Source of the DNA: a virus
Lineage: Duplodnaviria; Heunggongvirae; Uroviricota; Caudoviricetes
Virus record (IMG/VR): IMGVR_UViG_2778261509_000015
Length of the DNA stretch: 33,902 nt
Strand: one strand, 5' to 3'
Shown here piece after piece: positions 2,856 through 32,534 of the stretch; positions within the stretch are counted from its first letter, which is position 1; every line of letters starts with the position of its first letter. The translations under genes and the position numbers were made by a program. The notes beneath the pieces were generated by a model. The model did no database searches and was not told the DNA's origin. It saw nothing but the letters and a program-made list of their open reading frames with translations.

Positions 2856-5800
2856 CGTCCACCTCCGGATAACAGCCCACCATCACGGGACTGCTGTTGC
2901 ATAAAGTCAGCTGCTGCTTTTTTCCCGAGGTCATACACCACCTTCAGTGCAGCCGGGCCTATCTGCCCGTTCGTGCCGTCATTATTAATCTCAATGTGGT
3001 ACTGCGGGGCAAACATCGCCATACCCGCACCACTGGTCGCTGCCACAACCCCCAGTTTGCCGTCAGCACCACGACGCAGTGGCAGAATGGCTTCAGGCCC
3101 GGCCTCGCCCATCACACCAGCGCCTTTTGCAAAAGCAAAAAACGTCGGACGGTTAACCACTGTGCCACTGTAGCGACTCAAATCAGCAGACTGATAAACA
3201 CCACCACAGGCATTAAAGGAAAGACTGCCGAGAACAGAACCCAGCCCCAGTGCACTACCAACGCCCTTTACTGCCTGCATCATCGCCATCTGTGCCATAA
3301 TTTTTGCCATATCCGACAACAGGGAAGAGGTGAAGGATTTAAAATTCAGCTTTCCGGTGGTACAGAACGTCGCCAGCCCGTTGCCCATGCTACTGAACGC
3401 GGTATTAAACAACTGCTCAGCGGTACCCGCCGCATTATCCGCATTCTCTGTAAAACTCTGAAAAGCCCGCATGGCACCCTTTTTCCAGTCTGCCTGCATC
3501 AGCTCCTGTTCCTGCCAGTAACGTCTGTTTTCGTTCAGTTGCCGGTTAAGACTGTCTGTCAGCGTCTGCTCAGCATTCCGGTATTCATCTGTGCCGTATG
3601 TTCCTTTCTGCTTACTGTCACGCTCCAGCTGTTCCCGCTGCTGCTGATATTTTTGTTGCAGACTGAACTGTGACTGGTATCGCTGACGCTGTTTATCCCC
3701 CATCCCTGTCGTGGCGATATCCAGGTCATGTTGCTGACGCAGAGCCCGTTCCTCTTCCGCCAGCTGGCTGGCAAGCTGAATGGATTTTTTCTTCAAATCA
3801 TTCAGCGCCGTCTGCTTCTGCAGCTCCTGCTGTTTTGCATCCAGCAGCGTCAGTGCCTGAACCAGCTCATCCTTATGCGCCAGCATGCTTTTTTCATCTG
3901 CCGTCAGCTTTTTACCGGCTAAGTCACTGATACGCTGCTGCAGGGCCAGAAGCTGTTTATGTGCTTCAGTCATCCTTTCAGTGACAATGCCTGCTGACTG
4001 TCTGGCGGCGGCAATCTGCCCCTCCACCTGCGCCTGTTGCTGGCTGTACTGCAGTAATAACCGGGTGGCCTCATCATTGCGGGTGGCAGGCGTTTTTTTC
4101 TTAATGGCTTTTTCGTAACGTTCATTTTCACGTTGTATCGCTGCATCCCTGACCGCCTGATCGGCGTACTGCATGGCATTAATACGCGCAAGTTCACGCT
4201 GATGTCGTGCTGCTTCCGTTTCATTCATCCGGTTCAGCGCAGCATTTTCAGCATTACGGCGTTTCTGTTGCTCCTGATAATTCCGCTCTGCCTGCTCTTT
4301 TGCATCCTGCAAATCCTGCTGGCGCTTTCGCTCTTTCAGCGCATCCAGTTGTTGCTGATCGTATTCCACCGTGGTGGACGCGTTCGTCCACGGAAATCTC
4401 TTCGCACGCTGAATTTTTTCCTGCAGCGCCGAAATCTGTTCATCCAGCGAGTCTTCACGACCAATATTCATGGCCGCATCCCAGAACTGCCTCCACCAGT
4501 CAGACAATGTCTGAAGCGTACTGCCCAGCGCATTGAGGTTATTATCAATATCCGCAGTACGCCGACCGGTTTCCTCTGCCAGTGCAGACATGGCTATCCG
4601 TGCAGCATCACTGGACCGTCCCTGATCCCCAAGGACACGTATCTGCTCAAGCTGAGTGGCAGTAAGAAAATGCAGCTCATTGTCCAGAGCCTTCGCGGCA
4701 TTTACAGGATCATCCTTCAGCCGCTTAAACTGATTTATGGTATCGCTGACCGACTGGCCAACCGATCGCTCCATCTGTGCGGCAGCTCTCGCCACCATAC
4801 CGATATCGTTTCCACGAAATGCACCACTCCCCACCACCTGAGCCAGCGCACCGGCTGCAGCATGTTGCGTGATACCATTCCCGGAAATAGCACGACTGAG
4901 CGTCCACAGCTGCCCGGCAGTGACTCCGGCATAATGCCCCGTCAGCGACAACTGCCGGTTAAATTCTTCCCCCTCCTTCTGACCGTCATACCAGGCTTTA
5001 CCAAGACCATAGACGGCCGCGGCAATACCGCCAATAACCCCGCCCAGCATCATGCCTTTCGGTGACATCAGTGTGTCTATCCATCCGGCACGGTTAGCCA
5101 GCGTTATCCCGGATCCCCTCAGCGCACCTAAATTGCCGCGGGCCAGTTCACCTATCAGAACGCCTATCTCCTGGCGGGCCGCTGCACTTTTCAGACCCAG
5201 CGAATGCGTGGCTTTTCCTGCCTGCTCCATTTTGCGGATATACACTTCTGCAGCACTGCTTACCCCCAGCTGGGCTGCCTTAGCACGAAGCAACTCAGAA
5301 GATGAAAGATTCTGGCGGGTTGCCTGCTCTTTAAGCTGACGGATAAACGCCACTTTCTGTCGGGTAGCCTCTTCCTCAGCCTGTGTAAGAACACGGGTTT
5401 TCGCCGTAACCTCAGAAATCAGCGCCAGATAATCCTGCTGACCAATCCCGCCACTGTTTCTGGCCTGTCGGATCTGCTGCTGAATACGCTGTAATTCCTG
5501 CAGCCCCGCACTGGCCTGTTTCACACTGTCAATCTGACGATAAAACGCAGCAGCCGCTTTATCCTGAGCCTCCGCCAGAGCCATGGCCTGCGCCTGTTCC
5601 TCGCGCATTTTCTGGCTCAGTGCCTCCATGCGCTGGCGGTTTTTTTCCACCTCGCGGGCCATGCGTTCATGAGCCTGTGTGTTCTTCTCCACCGTCTGCG
5701 CATGGACGGATGCGGCTGTTGCAGACGAAGAAGCCGCCTGCGTTGTCTGCCGGGCGGCCTGAGTCTGACGCTCCATAAAACGCTGCATACGGGCAGAAGA

Positions 5801-18013: not shown

Positions 18014-18088
<75 letters not shown>

Positions 18089-25194: not shown

Positions 25195-25427
25195 GCTGCA
25201 CCTCCGAGATGCTTCATGTTTTTTCCGGAGCGAAAGGCTATAAGCGGCATACTGACGCGGTAATTACGGCCCAGCGGTTCACAAATCACCTTCTGGCATT
25301 CACGGTCAACCAGGCTAACACGTAGAACATGCCCTGCAGGCGTGGTGTACCACTGCCCAACTGTAGGAATTGATGTTTTTTTACGCTGAAGCAAACGGCA
25401 AATATTGAGGATCAACGGATTAAGCAT
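25191..25427 (-). CDS. Hypothetical protein (78 aa)
   Basis: ATG with GGAGGG 8 nt upstream; ATGA coupling to O-like start; no homology recognised. Confidence 0.4.
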   Translation of the reverse strand: MLNPLILNICRLLQRKKTSIPTVGQWYTTPAGHVLRVSLVDRECQKVICEPLGRNYRVSMPLIAFRSGKNMKHLGGAA

Positions 25428-26256
25428 GACGATGCCCTCCGCTGATATTCAGGAGACGGTGAATATGAAAATTAGCCTTATCCGCCAGACGAATACGTTC
25501 AGCCTGCAAGTTAAGAAGGGTTTCTACCAAAACCTGATGCGCCTGCGGATCCGAAAGAGTTACCTTGCGCAGAGCACGTAGTGCAGTTGTTACATAACTG
25601 AGTTTATGTAAGTCTTCATCATTCAGACGAGTGAGGGCTGGGACAGTAGCCATGATGGCAGCCTCCTTGATCGGTGAAATACTTCCACCACCGGAAACGC
25701 CAATTTCGCTGGTGGTGAACTGAACGGGGTTGGCGTAACCGGTGATCAAGGAAACCGGCGCATCTTTCGATGCCCCCGCCCAGCCCACCATAACTTTGAT
25801 GTGAGCAAATGCGGACGATAAAAAAGACGCTGGCGCGTCATATATCGCCTTGATCAATTCCAGGACGCCAATCCCGGCACCCGCTTTATAAGGTGCCTGA
25901 ACAGTGTAACGTCCCGGAATGGCAGAATCAATGTGCTGGTGGTCCTTCACACTCAACAAAATCACGCCTGAATTTCCACAAAGGACTAAAGCACTCATGC
26001 GGGTAGTCTTTGCGAAGATAGATAACGCGCTGTGTTTCTGGCTCCCAACGAATAACATGGACATAAAGCCCTCTTCCATCACGAAACCAGCGGTTAAGTT
26101 CCTGCACAACTCGCCCCCCACAGTCAGGTAAAGTTCTCTGTGGTTACTTACAGCCAGGTGATTTGGTAATCTGCATTCATGCCGTAACAACAGGTGTTCA
26201 GCGACGCTGACCACCAGCTGTTGCGACAAACGGTTATTTGCCGTTAAACTGTTCAT
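25420..26256 (-). CDS. Hypothetical phage protein (278 aa), function unknown
   Basis: Long ORF, ATG with GGAGAA upstream, ATGA coupling to upstream gene; size and position resemble Rac ydaU-like genes, but no sequence recall. Confidence 0.5.
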   Translation of the reverse strand: MNSLTANNRLSQQLVVSVAEHLLLRHECRLPNHLAVSNHRELYLTVGGELCRNLTAGFVMEEGFMSMLFVGSQKHSALSIFAKTTRMSALVLCGNSGVILLSVKDHQHIDSAIPGRYTVQAPYKAGAGIGVLELIKAIYDAPASFLSSAFAHIKVMVGWAGASKDAPVSLITGYANPVQFTTSEIGVSGGGSISPIKEAAIMATVPALTRLNDEDLHKLSYVTTALRALRKVTLSDPQAHQVLVETLLNLQAERIRLADKANFHIHRLLNISGGHRHA

Positions 26257-27053: not shown

Positions 27054-27132
27054 ATGTACCTCCGATATACATATTACATGATTGAGATGAACCTTCAAGA
27101 TACTTGTACCCTATCGGTACAAAGGTTTTAAT
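27054..27132. promoter_or_regulatory. Immunity switch: operators O2 (27054..27072) and O1 (27104..27122) with divergent pR-like and pRM-like promoters
   Basis: O1 is the palindrome TTGTACCctatcGGTACAA; O2 is ATGTACCtccgaTATACAT. pR (minus) has -35 TTGAAG, 16 bp spacer, -10 TAATAT; pRM (plus) has -35 TTGTAC, 17 bp spacer, -10 TTTAAT and would give a leaderless cI mRNA. Confidence 0.5.
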
Positions 27133-27138
27133 TTCGTT

Positions 27139-27813
27139 ATGAAAACAGTCCATGACATCCGGCGGTCTAACGCCAGAAAACTGAGAGATGGTGTTGGCGG
27201 GAATTCTTCCTTTGCCACCATGATTGATCGCGAGCCAACCCAGACCAGCAGGTTTATGGGAGATGGTGCTACTAAAAATATCGGTGACAGCATGGCACGG
27301 CACATCGAAAAATGTTTCGACCTTCCTGTCGGATGGCTTGATCAAGAACACCAGACAACAAACATCACAAAAAAACCTGATGTTTCAATTACTAACAAAC
27401 AAATAACGTTAGTCCCTGTCATATCATGGGTACAGGCCGGAGCATGGAAAGAAGTTGGCTATTCTGAGGTTGATTTGAGCACAGCAGAAACTTATCCCTG
27501 CCCTGTACCCTGTGGCGAAATGACTTATATCTTGCGGGTGATTGGTGATTCAATGATTGATGAGTACCGCCCGGGAGACATGATTTTTGTAGATCCTGAA
27601 GTCCCTGCCTGCCACGGTGACGACGTTATTGCATTGATGCACGATACAGGCGAAACCACCTTTAAGCGGTTGATAGAAGATGGAACACAGCGTTACCTCA
27701 AAGCATTAAACCCAAACTGGCCTGAACCTTACATTAAGATCAACGGTAATTGCTCTATAATTGGTACAGTAATTTTCTCAGGAAAACCAAGAAGATACAA
27801 AATAAAGGCCTAA
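27139..27813 (+). CDS. CI-like repressor with C-terminal S24 (LexA-like) autopeptidase domain
   Basis: 224 aa; C-terminal GDSM...KR motifs of S24 peptidases; divergent from cro-like gene; start codon abuts predicted pRM start site. Confidence 0.8.
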   Translation: MKTVHDIRRSNARKLRDGVGGNSSFATMIDREPTQTSRFMGDGATKNIGDSMARHIEKCFDLPVGWLDQEHQTTNITKKPDVSITNKQITLVPVISWVQAGAWKEVGYSEVDLSTAETYPCPVPCGEMTYILRVIGDSMIDEYRPGDMIFVDPEVPACHGDDVIALMHDTGETTFKRLIEDGTQRYLKALNPNWPEPYIKINGNCSIIGTVIFSGKPRRYKIKA

Positions 27814-27825
27814 TCAATATTTATA

Positions 27826-27848
27826 ACCTGCTTCGGCAGGTTTTTTTA
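27826..27848 (+). terminator. Rho-independent terminator after cI (stem AACCTGC / GCAGGTT, UUCG loop, T7 run)
   Basis: Read directly: aacctgcttcggcaggttttttt, 13 nt after cI stop. Confidence 0.8.
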
Positions 27849-27851
27849 TAC

Positions 27852-27879
27852 TTGACAATGTACCCATGAGATACATAAT
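27852..27879 (+). promoter_or_regulatory. pL-like sigma70 promoter with overlapping operator O3
   Basis: -35 TTGACA (27852..27857), 16 bp spacer, -10 CATAAT (27874..27879); operator-like ATGTACCcatgaGATACAT (27858..27876) fills the spacer and -10. Confidence 0.6.
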
Positions 27880-28296
27880 GTATCTAAAAGAAACATGTCA
27901 CAGGCAAGATTAAACAAAATTTGGTTGTAACACGGCGTATGGCACATGCGTCGTTAGCGGTCTGGGGACGTTAAAGGGGACAATCCACTCCTTGCTCGGG
28001 CAAACAAACCAGGTAGCCGGAATGTGCAAGTCAATGATGATGCTGATAAGACGCCTAACCAGCGTGGCGATCCGGTTTGACGCCTGGGAAGAGACCAGGG
28101 TGCAACGATGAGGGCATTTATGGAGCCGCGACAAAGTGTGGTGCCGTAACTGGCTAAGTGCTCTCAGCGTTGTGGTAATCCGCGAAATGGCGCGGCGGTA
28201 AGTATGGCGGGGTTACTCTTTCCCCGTTGAGGACACCGGATTGTCAGGTTGACCATACGCCTGAGTGACAACCCCACCACAACAGCCACTGCTTTG

Positions 28297-28341
28297 GCGG
28301 TACCAGTTTGTACACTTTCTTCCGGCTGGTACCGCTCTTTT
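28297..28341 (+). terminator. Terminator-like inverted repeat in the pL leader (GCGGTACCAG...CTGGTACCGC + TCTTTTT)
   Basis: 10-bp perfect arms at 28297..28306 and 28326..28335 with 19-nt loop, followed by a T-run. Confidence 0.4.
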
Positions 28342-28479
28342 TACAAAACAGAGAAGAGCATCACCGGACGACGGGCTCATAACCCAATCCACCCGGGCGG
28401 CTGCCACCGCAGGTGTTCTTCTCTGTTTTGTGGAGAAACCAACCGACCTTGCAGGGTCGATATGATGAGGAGCAGCAAA

Positions 28480-28842
28480 ATGGCTAGCGAACGCAGTACT
28501 GATGTGCAGGCATTTATCGGGGAGCTGGACGGCGGCGTATTTGAAACCAAAATCGGCGCAGTTCTCAGTGAAGTCGCTTCAGGTGTGATGAACACGAAAA
28601 CCAAAGGTAAGGTCTCACTCAACTTGGAAATCGAACCATTTGATGAGAACCGTGTGAAAATCAAACACAAACTCTCATATGTTCGCCCGACTAACCGCGG
28701 GAAAATTTCCGAAGAAGACACCACCGAAACGCCGATGTATGTCAATCGCGGTGGTCGCCTGACTATTCTGCAGGAAGACCAGGGACAATTACTGACTCTT
28801 GCCGGTGAACCTGACGGAAAACTCCGCGCAGCAGGTCATTAA
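28480..28842 (+). CDS. YfdP-like hypothetical protein (120 aa)
   Basis: ATG at 28480 with GAGGAG 8 nt upstream; size and position match CPS-53 yfdP (sizes recalled); first gene of the yfdPQRST-like operon. Confidence 0.5.
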   Translation: MASERSTDVQAFIGELDGGVFETKIGAVLSEVASGVMNTKTKGKVSLNLEIEPFDENRVKIKHKLSYVRPTNRGKISEEDTTETPMYVNRGGRLTILQEDQGQLLTLAGEPDGKLRAAGH

Positions 28843-31054: not shown

Positions 31055-31404
31055 TGGAGCCATACAGCCTCACACTCGATGAGGCCTGTCATTTTCTCAA
31101 GATATCCAGACCGACTGCCATTAACTGGATACGCACAGGGCGTCTTCAGGCAACACGCAAAGATCCCACTAAGAATAAATCTCCTTACCTCACAACACGA
31201 CAAGCCTGCATTGCGGCTCTTCAGTCTCCGCTGCATACTGTCCAGGTGAGCGCGGGTGATGGCATAACAGAGGAAAGAAAATGTCACTCTTCCGCAGAGG
31301 TGAAATATGGTACGCCAGTTTCACATTGCCGAACGGTAAAAGATTTAAACAGTCTCTTGGAACAAAGGACAAAAGGCAGGCGACAGAACTCCATGACAAG
31401 CTAA
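31054..31404 (+). CDS. Excisionase (AlpA/MerR-like HTH)
   Basis: ATG at 31054 with AAGAGGTGA upstream gives [33 protein letters not shown]; reading frame runs 124 nt into the integrase gene. Confidence 0.55.
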
Positions 31405-32444
31405 AGGCTGAAGCATGGCGGGTCAGCAAACTTGGTGAAATACCTGATATAACGTTCGAGGAAGCGTGTGTCAGGTGGCTTGAAGAGAAAGCACATAAAA
31501 AATCACTGGACGATGACAAAAGCCGGATCGGATTCTGGCTTCAACATTTCGCAGGAATGCAACTAAGAGACATTACTGAATCAAAAATTTATTCAGCAAT
31601 GCAGAAAATGACGAACCGGCGTCATGAGGAAAACTGGAAACTCAGGGCAGAAGCATGCAGAAAAAAAGGGAAACCTGTTCCAGAATACACGCCAAAACCA
31701 GCGTCCGTTGCAACGAAGGCTACGCATCTTTCATTTATAAAGGCCCTACTAAGAGCCGCAGAGCGTGAATGGAAAATGCTGGATAAGGCACCAATTATTA
31801 AAGTGCCCCAACCAAAGAATAAACGGATCCGCTGGCTGGAGCCCCATGAAGCACAAAGGCTGATTGATGAATGTCCGGAGCCATTAAAGTCTGTTGTTGA
31901 ATTTGCACTGGCAACAGGCCTAAGACGCTCGAACATCATCAACCTTGAATGGCAACAAATAGATATGCAGCGCCGGGTGGCATGGATAAACCCGGAAGAG
32001 AGTAAATCAAACCGCGCAATTGGCGTTGCGCTGAATGATACTGCATGTCGCGTATTGAAAAAACAAATCGGGAATCATCACCGTTGGGTATTTGTGTACA
32101 AGGAAAGCTGTACCAAACCAGACGGAACGAAAGCGCCAACAGTCAGGAAGATGCGGTATGACGCAAACACAGCCTGGAAAGCGGCGCTGAGACGGGCTGG
32201 TATTGATGATTTCAGATTTCACGACTTGAGACACACCTGGGCAAGTTGGCTGGTTCAAGCCGGAGTCCCGTTGTCAGTGTTACAGGAAATGGGAGGCTGG
32301 GAGTCTATCGAAATGGTTCGTCGATATGCTCACCTTGCACCTAATCACCTTACCGAACACGCACGGCAAATAGACTCGATCCTAAACCCATCGGTCCCAA
32401 ATTTGTCCCAGTCAAAAAATAAGGAAGGTACTAATGATGTGTAA
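31281..32444 (+). CDS. Tyrosine integrase (phage integrase family)
   Basis: 387 aa; catalytic R...HDLRHTWAS...RYAH motifs; GAGGAAAG RBS; ends 14 bp from tRNA-Thr 3' end. Confidence 0.9.
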
Positions 32445-32458
32445 CTTATTGATTTAAA

Positions 32459-32534
32459 TGGTGCCGATAATAGGAGTCGAACCTACGACCTTCGCATTAC
32501 GAATGCGCTGCTCTACCAACTGAGCTATATCGGC
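32459..32534 (-). tRNA. thrW: tRNA-Thr (anticodon CGU), host thrW; prophage attachment site
   Basis: Minus-strand GCCGATATAGCTCAGTTGGTAGAGCAGCGCATTCGTAATGCGAAGGTCGTAGGTTCGACTCCTATTATCGGCACCA; anticodon loop TTCGTAA; lies between integrase and proA as in E. coli. Confidence 0.9.

Follow-up and report, generated by a model that had tools for sequence, protein, structure and literature searches.

DicF is among the oldest known bacterial small RNAs and, to our knowledge, its genomic setting has so far been regarded as a mere intergenic spacer. It belongs to the dicBF operon (ydfABC-dicF-dicB-ydfD) of the Qin prophage in K-12, a repressor-controlled early-left-type operon of a lambdoid element, for which termination as well as cutting by RNase E and by RNase III has been shown experimentally; Hfq binding is a further trait of DicF. 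The 5′ end of DicF depends on RNase E (PMC5069750), and a 72-nt DicF species consists of the 53-nt form plus 19 nt, with a 3′ end generated by RNase III (PMC5069750, PMC9438474). A “dicF-like region” is annotated in the tRNA-containing ban operon leader of P1 (AF234173), behind the C1-controlled Pban promoter. The put RNAs of HK022 suppress downstream terminators through the zinc-binding domain of the RNA polymerase β′ subunit. They are about 70 nt long, lie directly after the promoter, have two stem-loops with a triplex at stem I, and are present as putL and putR (PMC9378689). SroC, CpxQ and MicL are 3′-UTR or intra-operonic small RNAs cut by RNase E (PMC9438474).

In the window analysed here (the whole stretch of 33,902 nucleotides), about 590 nt without a credible gene separate a repressor-controlled promoter (27852-27879) from a yfdP-like gene at 28480 (Table 1). 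This leader is probably the counterpart of the dicF small-RNA locus: the head of an early-left operon, built as a mosaic of module B, module C, a terminator hairpin and a long hairpin E. Judged by sequence, its layout appears homologous to both the Qin ydfC-dicF-dicB interval and the P1 Pban leader. The first-pass annotation had treated the leader as one unit, but we find a mosaic of independently distributed modules. Its proposal of a regulatory ncRNA or a processed structured leader is backed by homology to the Qin dicF segment, by a DicF signal, and by the position and shape of the long stem. Every sequence feature it named was recovered in place: the promoter, the operator-like palindrome, both inverted repeats and the boxA-like CGCTCTTT.

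The promoter is the sole promoter-like site on the + strand of 27800-28480, and its spacing predicts a transcription start near 27886. The operator-like pair overlaps the start site as well as the spacer and -10 element of the promoter, and a third copy of ATGTA-N9-TACAT, an exact one, is found at 27054-27072, at the divergent promoter of the cro/PR side; these three sites, all in the immunity region, are the only matches in the 34-kb window and compare with 0.66 expected. S24 repressor, Cro-like and CII genes are the neighbours of the leader. The description of the leader as gene-free held up: the + strand of 27880-28479 contains no ATG-started ORF of at least 20 aa, and a GTG-started frame at 28265-28465 was judged non-coding. 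From the repressor gene to the yfdP-like gene, the first of the early-left operon, no N gene was found; the yfdP-like gene has no Pfam match and is followed by a DUF2303/YfdQ gene. The small hairpin just ahead of it, which the terminator scan also reads as terminator-like on the - strand, is a possible 5′ stabiliser of a processed yfdP-like mRNA. That the leader is heavily structured was confirmed by folding z-scores of -5.1 (28336-28490), -4.2 (28284-28345) and -2.8 (27886-28345, + strand, vs -1.8 on the - strand). An Rfam scan of the whole window at gathering cut-offs gave no match within the leader. A literature search for the literal leader sequence, with the 1994 dicF paper and the P1 genome paper outside its reach, likewise gave no match.

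Table 1. Features of the leader and its flanks, with positions in the window.
Feature	Position	Strand	Basis or description
S24-type repressor gene	27139-27813		Pfam Peptidase_S24, E 1.5e-26
Intrinsic terminator of the S24-type repressor gene	27825..27842	+	Terminator scan: 7-bp stem, 4-nt loop, T-run
Early-left (PL-type) promoter, TTGACA-16-CATAAT	27852..27879	+	11/12 consensus positions
Two adjacent operator-like sites, ATGTA-N9-TACAT	27858-27876 (exact), 27878-27896 (1 mismatch)	.	Motif search
Module B, conserved structured RNA	27917..28168	+	RNAalifold, 28 divergent copies
Module C, “pre-DicF” element	28169..28283	+	Four helices and a probable pseudoknot, 115 nt
Module C, P1	28169-76/28276-83
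Module C, P2	28180-84/28191-95
Module C, P3	28208-12/28222-26
Module C, P4	28238-46/28266-74
Module C, P5, probable pseudoknot	28202-07/28254-59
Linker AGCCACUGCUUUG	28284..28296	+	0 polymorphic sites among 32 near-identical copies
DicF-like terminator hairpin / putative small-RNA cassette	28293..28341	+	DicF alignment, folding z
Hairpin E	28338..28436	+	25-bp stem at the base, taking in the terminator U-run; three-way junction on top
Small hairpin CGACCU-UGCA-GGGUCG	28444..28459	+	Predicted fold; just 5′ of the ribosome-binding site
Ribosome-binding site GAGGAG (28467-28472) and yfdP-like gene (ATG 28480), first early-left gene	28467..28842	+

Comparison with dicBF starts from module C, which lies directly 5′ of the terminator hairpin in both loci: 28169-28283 has 90-94% identity with the sequence directly 5′ of dicF in K-12 Qin, and the match to 28169-28275 falls in the ydfC-dicB interval of K-12 Qin. 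In the K-12 Qin sequence (L002), Rfam places DicF at 4133-4184, 17 nt past the end of module C (4001-4115). The two loci also have a common terminator-hairpin base (UUUGGCGG...CCGCyCUUUUU) and a long stem that runs from the U-run to before the ribosome-binding site of the next gene; the hairpin of the leader, like dicF, lies in a prophage early operon with a conserved segment 5′ of it and a long stem before the next gene. They differ in that ydfA/B/C stand upstream in Qin, where the leader has module B, in the 19 nt carrying the DicF 5′ end and seed, which the leader does not have, and in the loop sequence and its ftsZ complementarity. The Qin stem is not sequence-homologous to hairpin E, and dicB rather than a yfdP-like gene lies downstream. 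P1 resembles the leader in having a repressor-controlled early promoter followed by module C, which overlaps the annotated dicF-like region, and an intrinsic terminator; the 5′ 190 nt of module B are also present, between trnI and ban. Modules B and C are, however, 2 kb apart in P1 with tRNA and tci genes between them, the terminator has a UUCG tetraloop, and module C is only ~75% identical.

Among 5426 complete E. coli genomes, 4261 (~79%) carry module C, which is annotated in none of them, and its other carriers include P1 and prophages of at least six Enterobacterales genera. Its structure was tested on 66 distinct copies aligned independently of structure: 95.4% of cells are paired and 10 pairs show double changes, whereas none of 500 shuffles matched any of these measures and sliding the partners left 31-55% paired. 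The unpaired segments are almost invariant across genera. The assignment of P5 as a pseudoknot remains tentative because its 5′ strand appears essentially invariant; it is supported by one U-A to C-G exchange and wobbles, and scans of viral contigs that required non-consensus bases in this strand returned 3 singletons only (1 wobble, 2 mismatches). A covariance model of module C found no second copy in the 33.9-kb window, the next match (13 bits) being on the opposite strand and overlapping the same copy. An intrinsic terminator (hairpin and T-run) of variable sequence lies 9-45 nt 3′ of module C in all 46 distinct downstream sequences, the P1 type included, and module C is far better conserved than this hairpin. 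Next after the terminator in the enterobacterial prophage types, P1 left aside, comes a long hairpin from one of two families. In mEp460, a different insert (C′) is held between the same outer-stem sequences, and T-arm-like remnants such as CTGGTTCAATTCCAG occur in related leaders. Relaxed Rfam scans produced only noise for module C (no match at E<=10) and no family for the mEp460-type insert, again noise only.

The hairpin behind module C is made up of the stem GCGGUACCAG/CUGGUACCGC, a 19-nt loop (UUUGUACACUUUCUUCCGG) and the tail UCUUUUU, and is seen in the DNA as a 10-bp perfect inverted repeat (28297-28306 and 28326-28335) followed by TCTTTTT. Because of the 19-nt loop, 28297-28341 escaped the simple terminator scan, and its strength as a terminator is uncertain. 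The boxA-like motif (28333-28340) of the first-pass annotation is the 3′ arm of this terminator together with the U-tract, and homologues read CCGCCCTTTTT, CCGCCGTTTTT or CCGCCATTTTT at this place. A lambda-type N/nut system was rejected since this motif varies among homologues, no N-like ORF is present and Pfam gives no match for the first gene. Against the Rfam DicF model (RF00039), the hairpin scores 11.8 bits (E 1.8; gathering cut-off 48), with model positions 12-52 at 28293-28337; the signal emerges only if an 87-nt stretch is submitted by itself, the gathering scan showing none, and K-12 dicF scores 76.7 bits. It is nevertheless the sole part of the leader with any Rfam signal, in the same register as DicF. 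On this alignment, the hairpin appears to be homologous to the 3′ two-thirds of DicF, with a different loop. The Pas small RNAs and HnrS, recently described prophage families that were also considered, are located in late regions and are unrelated.

Pairwise alignment with K-12 opens a 19-nt gap at the segment with the mapped DicF 5′ end. The single-stranded 5′ region UUUCUGGUGACG, in which DicF has both its xylR seed and the 5′ end mapped as a product of RNase E, is absent from the window and from all window-type cassettes. Because this Qin segment is missing, the hairpin may never be set free as a small RNA of its own, and it could instead stay joined to module C in one longer product. For ftsZ complementarity, a crude whole-molecule estimate (duplexfold) gave a duplex energy z of +0.6 for the window variant vs -1.8 for DicF, and the loop has no target inside the prophage window within 3 mismatches. 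With the DicF 5′ seed absent and no ftsZ match, the small RNA encoded here would be a relative of DicF, not DicF itself, and its target would differ. The hairpin is one of a series of cassettes that share the pattern “UUUGGCGG...CCGCC(C)UUUUU” and each lie 3′ of module C, their apices being hypervariable; the loops include two different ftsZ-complementary ones and several others, and the P1-type hairpin carries a simple UUCG tetraloop in place of a seed-like loop. The linker in front of the hairpin is a candidate RNase E site (cut between GC and UUU), proposed because the DicF 5′ end is known to be RNase E-dependent.

Hairpin E begins within the terminator U-run, and its repeat arms (28343-28367 and 28407-28431) are perfect over the first 15 nt. 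Compensatory changes, which the first-pass annotation had suggested looking for in homologues, were found: the base pairs of hairpin E covary across genera, with A-U to C-G and G-C to A-U exchanges, and across 33 variants its 38 pairs are preserved at 98.5%. In Erwinia and Izhakiella, identity to the window is 85-96% for hairpin E and 81-86% for module C, but 64-68% for the yfdP-like gene. This better conservation of C and E across genera than of the downstream protein gene points to selection at the RNA level. In Qin, the 72-nt DicF species has its 3′ end within the analogous, non-homologous long stem (z = -4.9): with 19 nt added to the 53-nt form, this end falls at 4203 of L002, within the 5′ arm of the stem. 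Hairpin E is, by this analogy, a candidate RNase III substrate.

Of the 5426 complete E. coli genomes, 1638 carry module B. For 28 divergent copies of it, RNAalifold predicts 36 pairs, 6 of them with double changes, and 99.1% of cells are paired vs 32-46% with the partners slid. Compensatory changes are seen in the helices 28051-54/28062-65 and 28083-86/28096-99, and further helices are predicted at 27933-41/27945-53, 27958-65/28009-19 and 28024-27/28100-03. A relaxed Rfam scan (E<=10) matched no family and gave noise only; two of the conserved folded modules of the leader, B and C, thus match no curated RNA family. In P1 and P1-like plasmids, module B begins directly 3′ of the CCA with which tRNA-Ile(CAU) ends; in TL-2011b-like (podophage-like) phages and prophages, it stops exactly at the start of tRNA-Arg(UCU), at the junction where the window has module C. 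The near-identity of the B/C and B/tRNA-Arg junctions (GTTGTGG, then Y-A-W-T) reaches ~8 nt into the tRNA. Modules B and C, both of them non-coding, conserved and folded, occupy positions that tRNAs hold in other phages; they could be processing handles, stable RNAs or terminator modulators.

If the leader works as dicBF does, loss of the repressor would let RNA polymerase start near 27886 and transcribe module B, module C, the DicF-type terminator hairpin and hairpin E in this order. Part of the transcripts would terminate at the U-run (28337-28341), and a cut by RNase E in the linker behind module C would free a hairpin RNA of ~45-50 nt, with the 19-nt loop as its likely base-pairing surface. 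Transcripts that read through would instead form hairpin E, in which the U-run becomes base-paired; cleavage of the 25-bp stem by RNase III would then provide the small RNA with another 3′ end and detach the yfdP-like mRNA, which would retain its small protective 5′ hairpin. We infer termination and both cleavages from the dicBF precedent. SroC, CpxQ and MicL are comparable in that a terminator hairpin ends a structured precursor and the 5′ end is expected from endonucleolytic cleavage, but their precursor is an mRNA with a simple guiding stem-loop, while that of the leader is non-coding and its upstream structure is far larger and more conserved.

This DicF-type explanation leaves the near-invariant loops of B and C unaccounted for, and other readings of the leader were weighed against it. 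That it encodes a small protein, either in the + frame through hairpin E (28265-28465) or in minus-strand frames, is barely credible. The + frame is open in the window, mEp460 and F1055, an AGGAG with ATG or GTG in the hairpin loop leads into it in Erwinia, Izhakiella, Trabulsiella and F1055, and hypothetical proteins are annotated on the minus strand in the cdtI, mEp460 and Ayreon records. However, variable sites in the + frame are distributed 9/15/11 over the codon positions, with the second position the most variable, its stop shifts among homologues, and in the window it lacks a Shine-Dalgarno sequence, its only start codon being a GTG enclosed in helix P4; the minus-strand frames are broken between lineages. 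Frames in B and C fare no better (codon-position counts 14/16/11, 14/9/15 and 10/11/8; indels of 1, 2 or 4 nt), module B showing no codon periodicity and indels that are not multiples of 3. The conserved coding frame that the first-pass annotation had held up against an RNA was thus not borne out. We also consider it very improbable that the leader is functionless, a mosaic filler left by recombination in tRNA and small-RNA regions and folded only to resist Rho and nucleases. Shuffling of modules among contexts is typical of phage mosaicism, and no known function can be attached to B or C, yet the helices are kept by compensatory changes, the loops are near-invariant in Escherichia, Citrobacter, a Salmonella phage, Trabulsiella, Erwinia, Izhakiella and P1, and C and E outdo the adjacent protein gene in conservation.

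The remaining readings give the modules upstream of the hairpin the leading part. Module C might be a cis-acting RNA that steers RNA polymerase at the adjacent terminator, as a put-like processive antiterminator or as a ligand- or factor-dependent attenuator, with the hairpin mainly a gate to the operon; the terminator of variable sequence that always lies behind it, P1's seedless tetraloop included, agrees with this, as do near-invariant unpaired segments of the kind expected of a surface binding host machinery, the lack of an N gene and an operon past the terminator that is needed for excision (int, 31281-32444). We nevertheless think it rather improbable. Membership of the HK022 put family, raised by the first-pass annotation, did not stand: both are structured nascent RNAs near an early promoter of an N-less lambdoid phage, ahead of terminators, but module C is 115 nt long, begins ~280 nt past the start site and has four nested helices and a pseudoknot, and it occurs once in the window instead of as a left and right pair, put being taken from its published description (PMC9378689). 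In Qin, moreover, three ORFs precede module C and the promoter is far off, and the K-12 terminator works, termination making the 53-nt DicF (PMC9438474). Inspection of the cassette types by eye showed no conserved alternative pairing between module C and the terminator arms, the region downstream has no additional strong intrinsic terminator that would need processive antitermination, and Rfam gave no riboswitch or antiterminator match. It is likewise unlikely that B and C are handles or decoys derived from tRNA arrays, excised by RNase P and RNase E as stable RNAs that act, for example, against tRNA-targeting defences, the hairpin being merely their terminator with a loop that occasionally gains a target. 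The tRNA junctions of module B suit such an origin, as do the cloverleaf topology of module C (outer stem, three arms and loop-to-junction tertiary pairing), its conservation well above that of the hairpin, the T-arm-like remnants and the insert swap within the outer stem in mEp460. Against it, ARAGORN found no tRNA in 27880-28480 and Rfam no tRNA, tmRNA or tRNA-like match at E<=10, no conserved CCA follows the outer stem, the arm sizes are far from tRNA dimensions, and the shared junction could be a mere recombination hotspot. A broader reading is possible, though we hold it tentatively: there may be a larger, undescribed RNA system of which DicF and its relatives form only the rapidly evolving terminator tail, and in which B, C and E are primarily selected and act on host machinery (RNA polymerase at the terminator, or tRNA-processing or -targeting enzymes), the loop serving as a swappable “seed cassette”.

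On the preferred reading, in which the leader is the counterpart of the dicF locus, the N gene would be missing from these lambdoid phages because an RNA occupies its space. In our analysis the setting of dicF emerges as a set of structured RNA modules, conserved more strongly than DicF and than the neighbouring protein genes, and the position of DicF is filled by a series of hairpins with interchangeable loops, which offers a concrete route to studying how the targets of phage small RNAs diversify. It also brings to light two RNA elements, widespread (4261 and 1638 of the 5426 genomes) and unannotated, that can be tested directly in inducible phages such as cdtI, mEp460, Ayreon or P1.

Comparison with related loci established the anatomy and homology of the early-left leader, the conservation of its structure and its non-coding nature. 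The early-left promoter (TTGACA-16-CATAAT) matches 11 of 12 consensus positions and is overlapped, as the first-pass annotation had it from an operator-like palindrome, by two 19-bp ATGTA-N9-TACAT sites. The 34-kb window has just one further copy, which sits at the divergent promoter on the cro side (27054-27072); as the three sites compare with 0.66 expected by chance, these are real operator-type sites. The same annotation described a heavily structured leader without an ORF and holding two inverted repeats; both repeats were found (28297-28341, and 28343-28357 with 28417-28431), no ATG-started plus-strand ORF of at least 20 codons precedes the yfdP-like gene (28480), and the RNA folds more strongly than shuffled controls (z = -5.1 for 28336-28490 and -4.2 for 28284-28345; for the upstream 460 nt, -2.8 on the plus strand versus -1.8 on the minus strand).

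Positions of the leader parts and other window features
Feature	Position	Strand	Remark
tRNA-Gly(UCC)	18014-18088	-	within prophage body
C4 antisense RNA	25708-25795	-	Rfam gathering-level, 82.3 bits
isrK	25820-25896	-	Rfam gathering-level, 64.2 bits; adjoins C4 match
S24-type repressor gene	27139-27813		Pfam Peptidase_S24
Hairpin terminator closing repressor gene	27825-27842		
Early-left promoter	27852-27879		
Module B	27917-28168		
Module C	28169-28283		
Linker	28284-28296		
DicF-like terminator hairpin	28293-28341		
Hairpin E	28338-28436		
tRNA-Thr(CGU)	32459-32534	-	directly after 387-aa ORF 31281-32444 (presumed integrase)

The leader is a mosaic whose modules each have a distribution of their own. 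In a megablast search of 5426 complete E. coli genomes, 27814-28479 had matches in 4788, most of the leader being present in only 895, and these matches fall into separate blocks: the promoter/operator block is restricted to its immunity type, module B occurs in 1638 genomes and also in P1-like plasmids, module C occupies 8360 places in 4261 genomes and is annotated in none, and the 3' block (28293-28479) travels with yfdP-like genes. The entire leader is found at 98-99% identity in the known phages cdtI, Ayreon and 2H10 and in Stx2c phages, and the mEp460 leader shares module B and the 3' block with the window but has another middle module. This middle module, C' (2757-2889 of the mEp460 locus L005; also in L176, L160, L221 and others), is a structured insert of ~125 nt in place of module C, without a match to any Rfam family, and its flanks are the outer-stem sequences of module C (GTTGTGGTGA ... 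TCACCACAAC). Since C and C' sit between the same sequences, the outer stem acts as a cassette boundary.

By sequence comparison, dicF anchors the leader to known biology. In K-12, module C is located between ydfC and dicB of the Qin prophage (locus L002, 4001-4115), and DicF (4133-4184; 76.7 bits in Rfam) begins 17 nt downstream of it. The window hairpin aligns pairwise with the 3' two-thirds of DicF (UUUGGCGGUAyCAGUUU...CCGCyCUUUUU) and lacks the K-12 DicF 5' end, which falls in a 19-nt gap; DicF is also the sole Rfam match of the 87-nt stretch scanned alone, in the same register, at 11.8 bits (cut-off 48). The P1 match to module C falls in the leader that follows the C1-controlled Pban promoter; a 'dicF-like region' is annotated there in GenBank, before tRNA-Asn and tRNA-Thr. 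Upstream of ban (~4975-5000 of the P1 locus L007), ATTTTCTGGTGATGAC, which follows the module B copy and sits right ahead of the ban ribosome-binding site, closely resembles the DicF 5' seed AUUUUCUGGUGACG. In a record labelled Actinobacillus phage vB_Apl-pPE4 (L008, 2501-2720), a DicA/Kil/exonuclease VIII region of E. coli type includes module C together with a DicF-like cassette (85% identity). This is unusual in a phage of Pasteurellaceae, and the prophage may be of Escherichia type or its host mislabelled.

A hairpin with a T-run follows module C in 46/46 distinct downstream sequences. Enterobacterial prophage cassettes share a conserved base (UUUGGCGG...CCGCC(C)UUUUU), from which that of the P1-type hairpin differs, and a hypervariable apex. 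The series includes canonical DicF, the window type, an ftsZ-complementary type, short types, a compensated GGUGG/CCACC type and long types in Erwinia, Izhakiella, Trabulsiella and Salmonella. Across 32 near-identical leaders, no RNA segment is as polymorphic as the hairpin loop, in which 21% of sites vary (6-10% in stems). The ftsZ-complementary type, from an IMG/VR contig (L057, 5584-5629, minus strand), has a loop, AGTTTCTCTCC, with 11 nt of perfect complementarity to the Shine-Dalgarno region of ftsZ, GGAGAGAAACT, and would be a second, independent ftsZ-directed loop, unlike that of canonical DicF. The window loop showed no ftsZ complementarity and no partner within the prophage. Long terminator hairpins in L029 (Erwinia), L030 (Izhakiella), L026 (Trabulsiella) and L006 (F1055) conserve an apical AGGAG followed by ATAATG/GTG; the frame starting there runs through the terminator 3' arm, the U-run and hairpin E, and the codon-position test speaks against coding.

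Module C is a genuine structured RNA. Scanning IMG/VR, and contigs representing one genome per species, for its pattern yielded 66 distinct copies from Escherichia (coli, albertii, ruysiae), Shigella, Citrobacter, Trabulsiella, Erwinia and Izhakiella, from a Salmonella phage and a phage record labelled Actinobacillus, and from P1-type elements. On a MAFFT alignment unfitted to any structure, a model of four nested helices (P1-P4) and one crossing helix (P5) pairs 95.4% of cells, against only 31-55% with slid partners; both sides changed in ten pairs, covariation lies mostly in P3 and P4, and 0/500 shuffles attain any of five measures. The pseudoknot helix P5 is probable, supported by a single exchange of U-A for C-G (P1 lineage) and by wobbles; its 5' strand was nearly invariant in two extra scans. 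Module C matched no Rfam family at E<=10, and a covariance model built on the alignment detects a single copy across the window. The module B 5' end (27925-27944, GGUUGUAACACGGCGUAUGG) is complementary to the P5/P4 3' strands (28254-28274, CCAUACGCC...ACAACC), and in the whole-leader minimum-free-energy fold this long-range pairing replaces the covariation-supported local fold; it is not conserved in P1, where the modules are far apart.

Module B is likewise structured and non-coding. Of the 36 pairs that RNAalifold predicted from 28 divergent copies, six have compensatory changes, mainly in two hairpins whose loops are conserved; pairing holds in 99.1% of cells versus 32-46% with slid partners, figures that derive from about three contributing lineages and from a structure tested on its own alignment. 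Substitutions by codon position lack a third-position excess in divergent copies of B (14/16/11 and 14/9/15) and C (10/11/8), among which indels measure 1, 2 or 4 nt. The only open frame that persists, 28265-28465, was ruled out as coding: its variable sites (9/15/11) fall mostly at codon position 2, its GTG start lies within P4 without a Shine-Dalgarno sequence, and its homologues stop at different positions. Minus-strand frames, given as hypothetical proteins in some phage records, are broken between lineages. Erwinia tracheiphila and Izhakiella maintain the order C, cassette, E, yfdP-like gene, and because C (81-86% nucleotide identity) and the E segments (85-96%) are more alike across genera than the yfdP-like gene (only 64-68%), selection acts on the leader RNA.

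Hairpin E has a precedent in dicBF. In K-12, the DicF 5' end is RNase E-dependent, the 53-nt DicF ends at an intrinsic terminator, and RNase III processing of the full operon transcript yields a 72-nt DicF (PMC5069750, PMC9438474). The 53-nt end plus 19 nt corresponds to L002 4203, within the 5' arm of a long Qin stem (z = -4.9) reaching from the U-run to just ahead of the dicB ribosome-binding site. The 25-bp window stem (UUUUUACAAAACAGAGAAGAGCAUC / GGUGUUCUUCUCUGUUUUGUGGAGA) also begins at the U-run and bears a three-way junction; the two stems are alike in design but unrelated in sequence. The 38 pairs of hairpin E are 98.5% kept over 33 variants, and compensation in homologues, which the first-pass annotation had proposed as a check on the two inverted repeats, is seen in hairpin E across genera as A-U to C-G and G-C to A-U exchanges.

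That module C acts as an antiterminator on the terminator behind it is attractive because a terminator always follows it, yet the idea found no positive support; membership tests did not place module C among HK022 put RNAs, to which the first-pass annotation had likened the leader as one option, and the operon has no further strong terminators downstream. A tRNA-like nature of modules B and C fits the genomic context and agrees with the topology, although none of the tRNA models matched. In P1 and P1-like plasmids, module B begins directly after the CCA end of tRNA-Ile(CAU), an anticodon that ARAGORN labels Met; in TL-2011b-like prophages, tRNA-Arg(UCU) begins exactly at the module B end, the junction at which the window has module C, and shared sequence reaches ~8 nt into the tRNA. 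Modules B and C thus occupy tRNA slots.

The TL-2011b tRNA-Arg(UCU) itself (L004, 2742-2818; ARAGORN), directly 3' of the module B copy, is absent from the GenBank annotation. In F1055 (L006, ~2400-2510), L219, L222 and L233, remnants resembling a T-arm (CTGGTTCAATTCCAG, TCCGTTCAATTCGGA) precede module C, in a region where ARAGORN found no tRNA; they suggest that F1055-type leaders hold decayed tRNA genes. The tRNA-Thr(CGU) of the window is presumably the attachment site. Elsewhere in the window, the C4 and isrK matches both lie within a long ORF of the early-right operon with an Ash-family Pfam domain (25420-26256, minus strand), and the pair resembles an immI-like module for antisense control, of P1/P4 type but carried by a lambdoid prophage.

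In Rfam and the searched texts, no description was found of modules B and C or of the DicF position behaving like a cassette site; the upstream conserved block may already be described in the 1990/1994 dicF papers or the P1 genome paper, which lie outside those texts. Owing to the DicF connection, the core finding is a variant of the known DicF system. By analogy with dicBF, transcription would terminate partially at 28341, RNase E would cleave the invariant linker, and RNase III would cut hairpin E within its stem, which would create a second 3' end and separate off the mRNA downstream.
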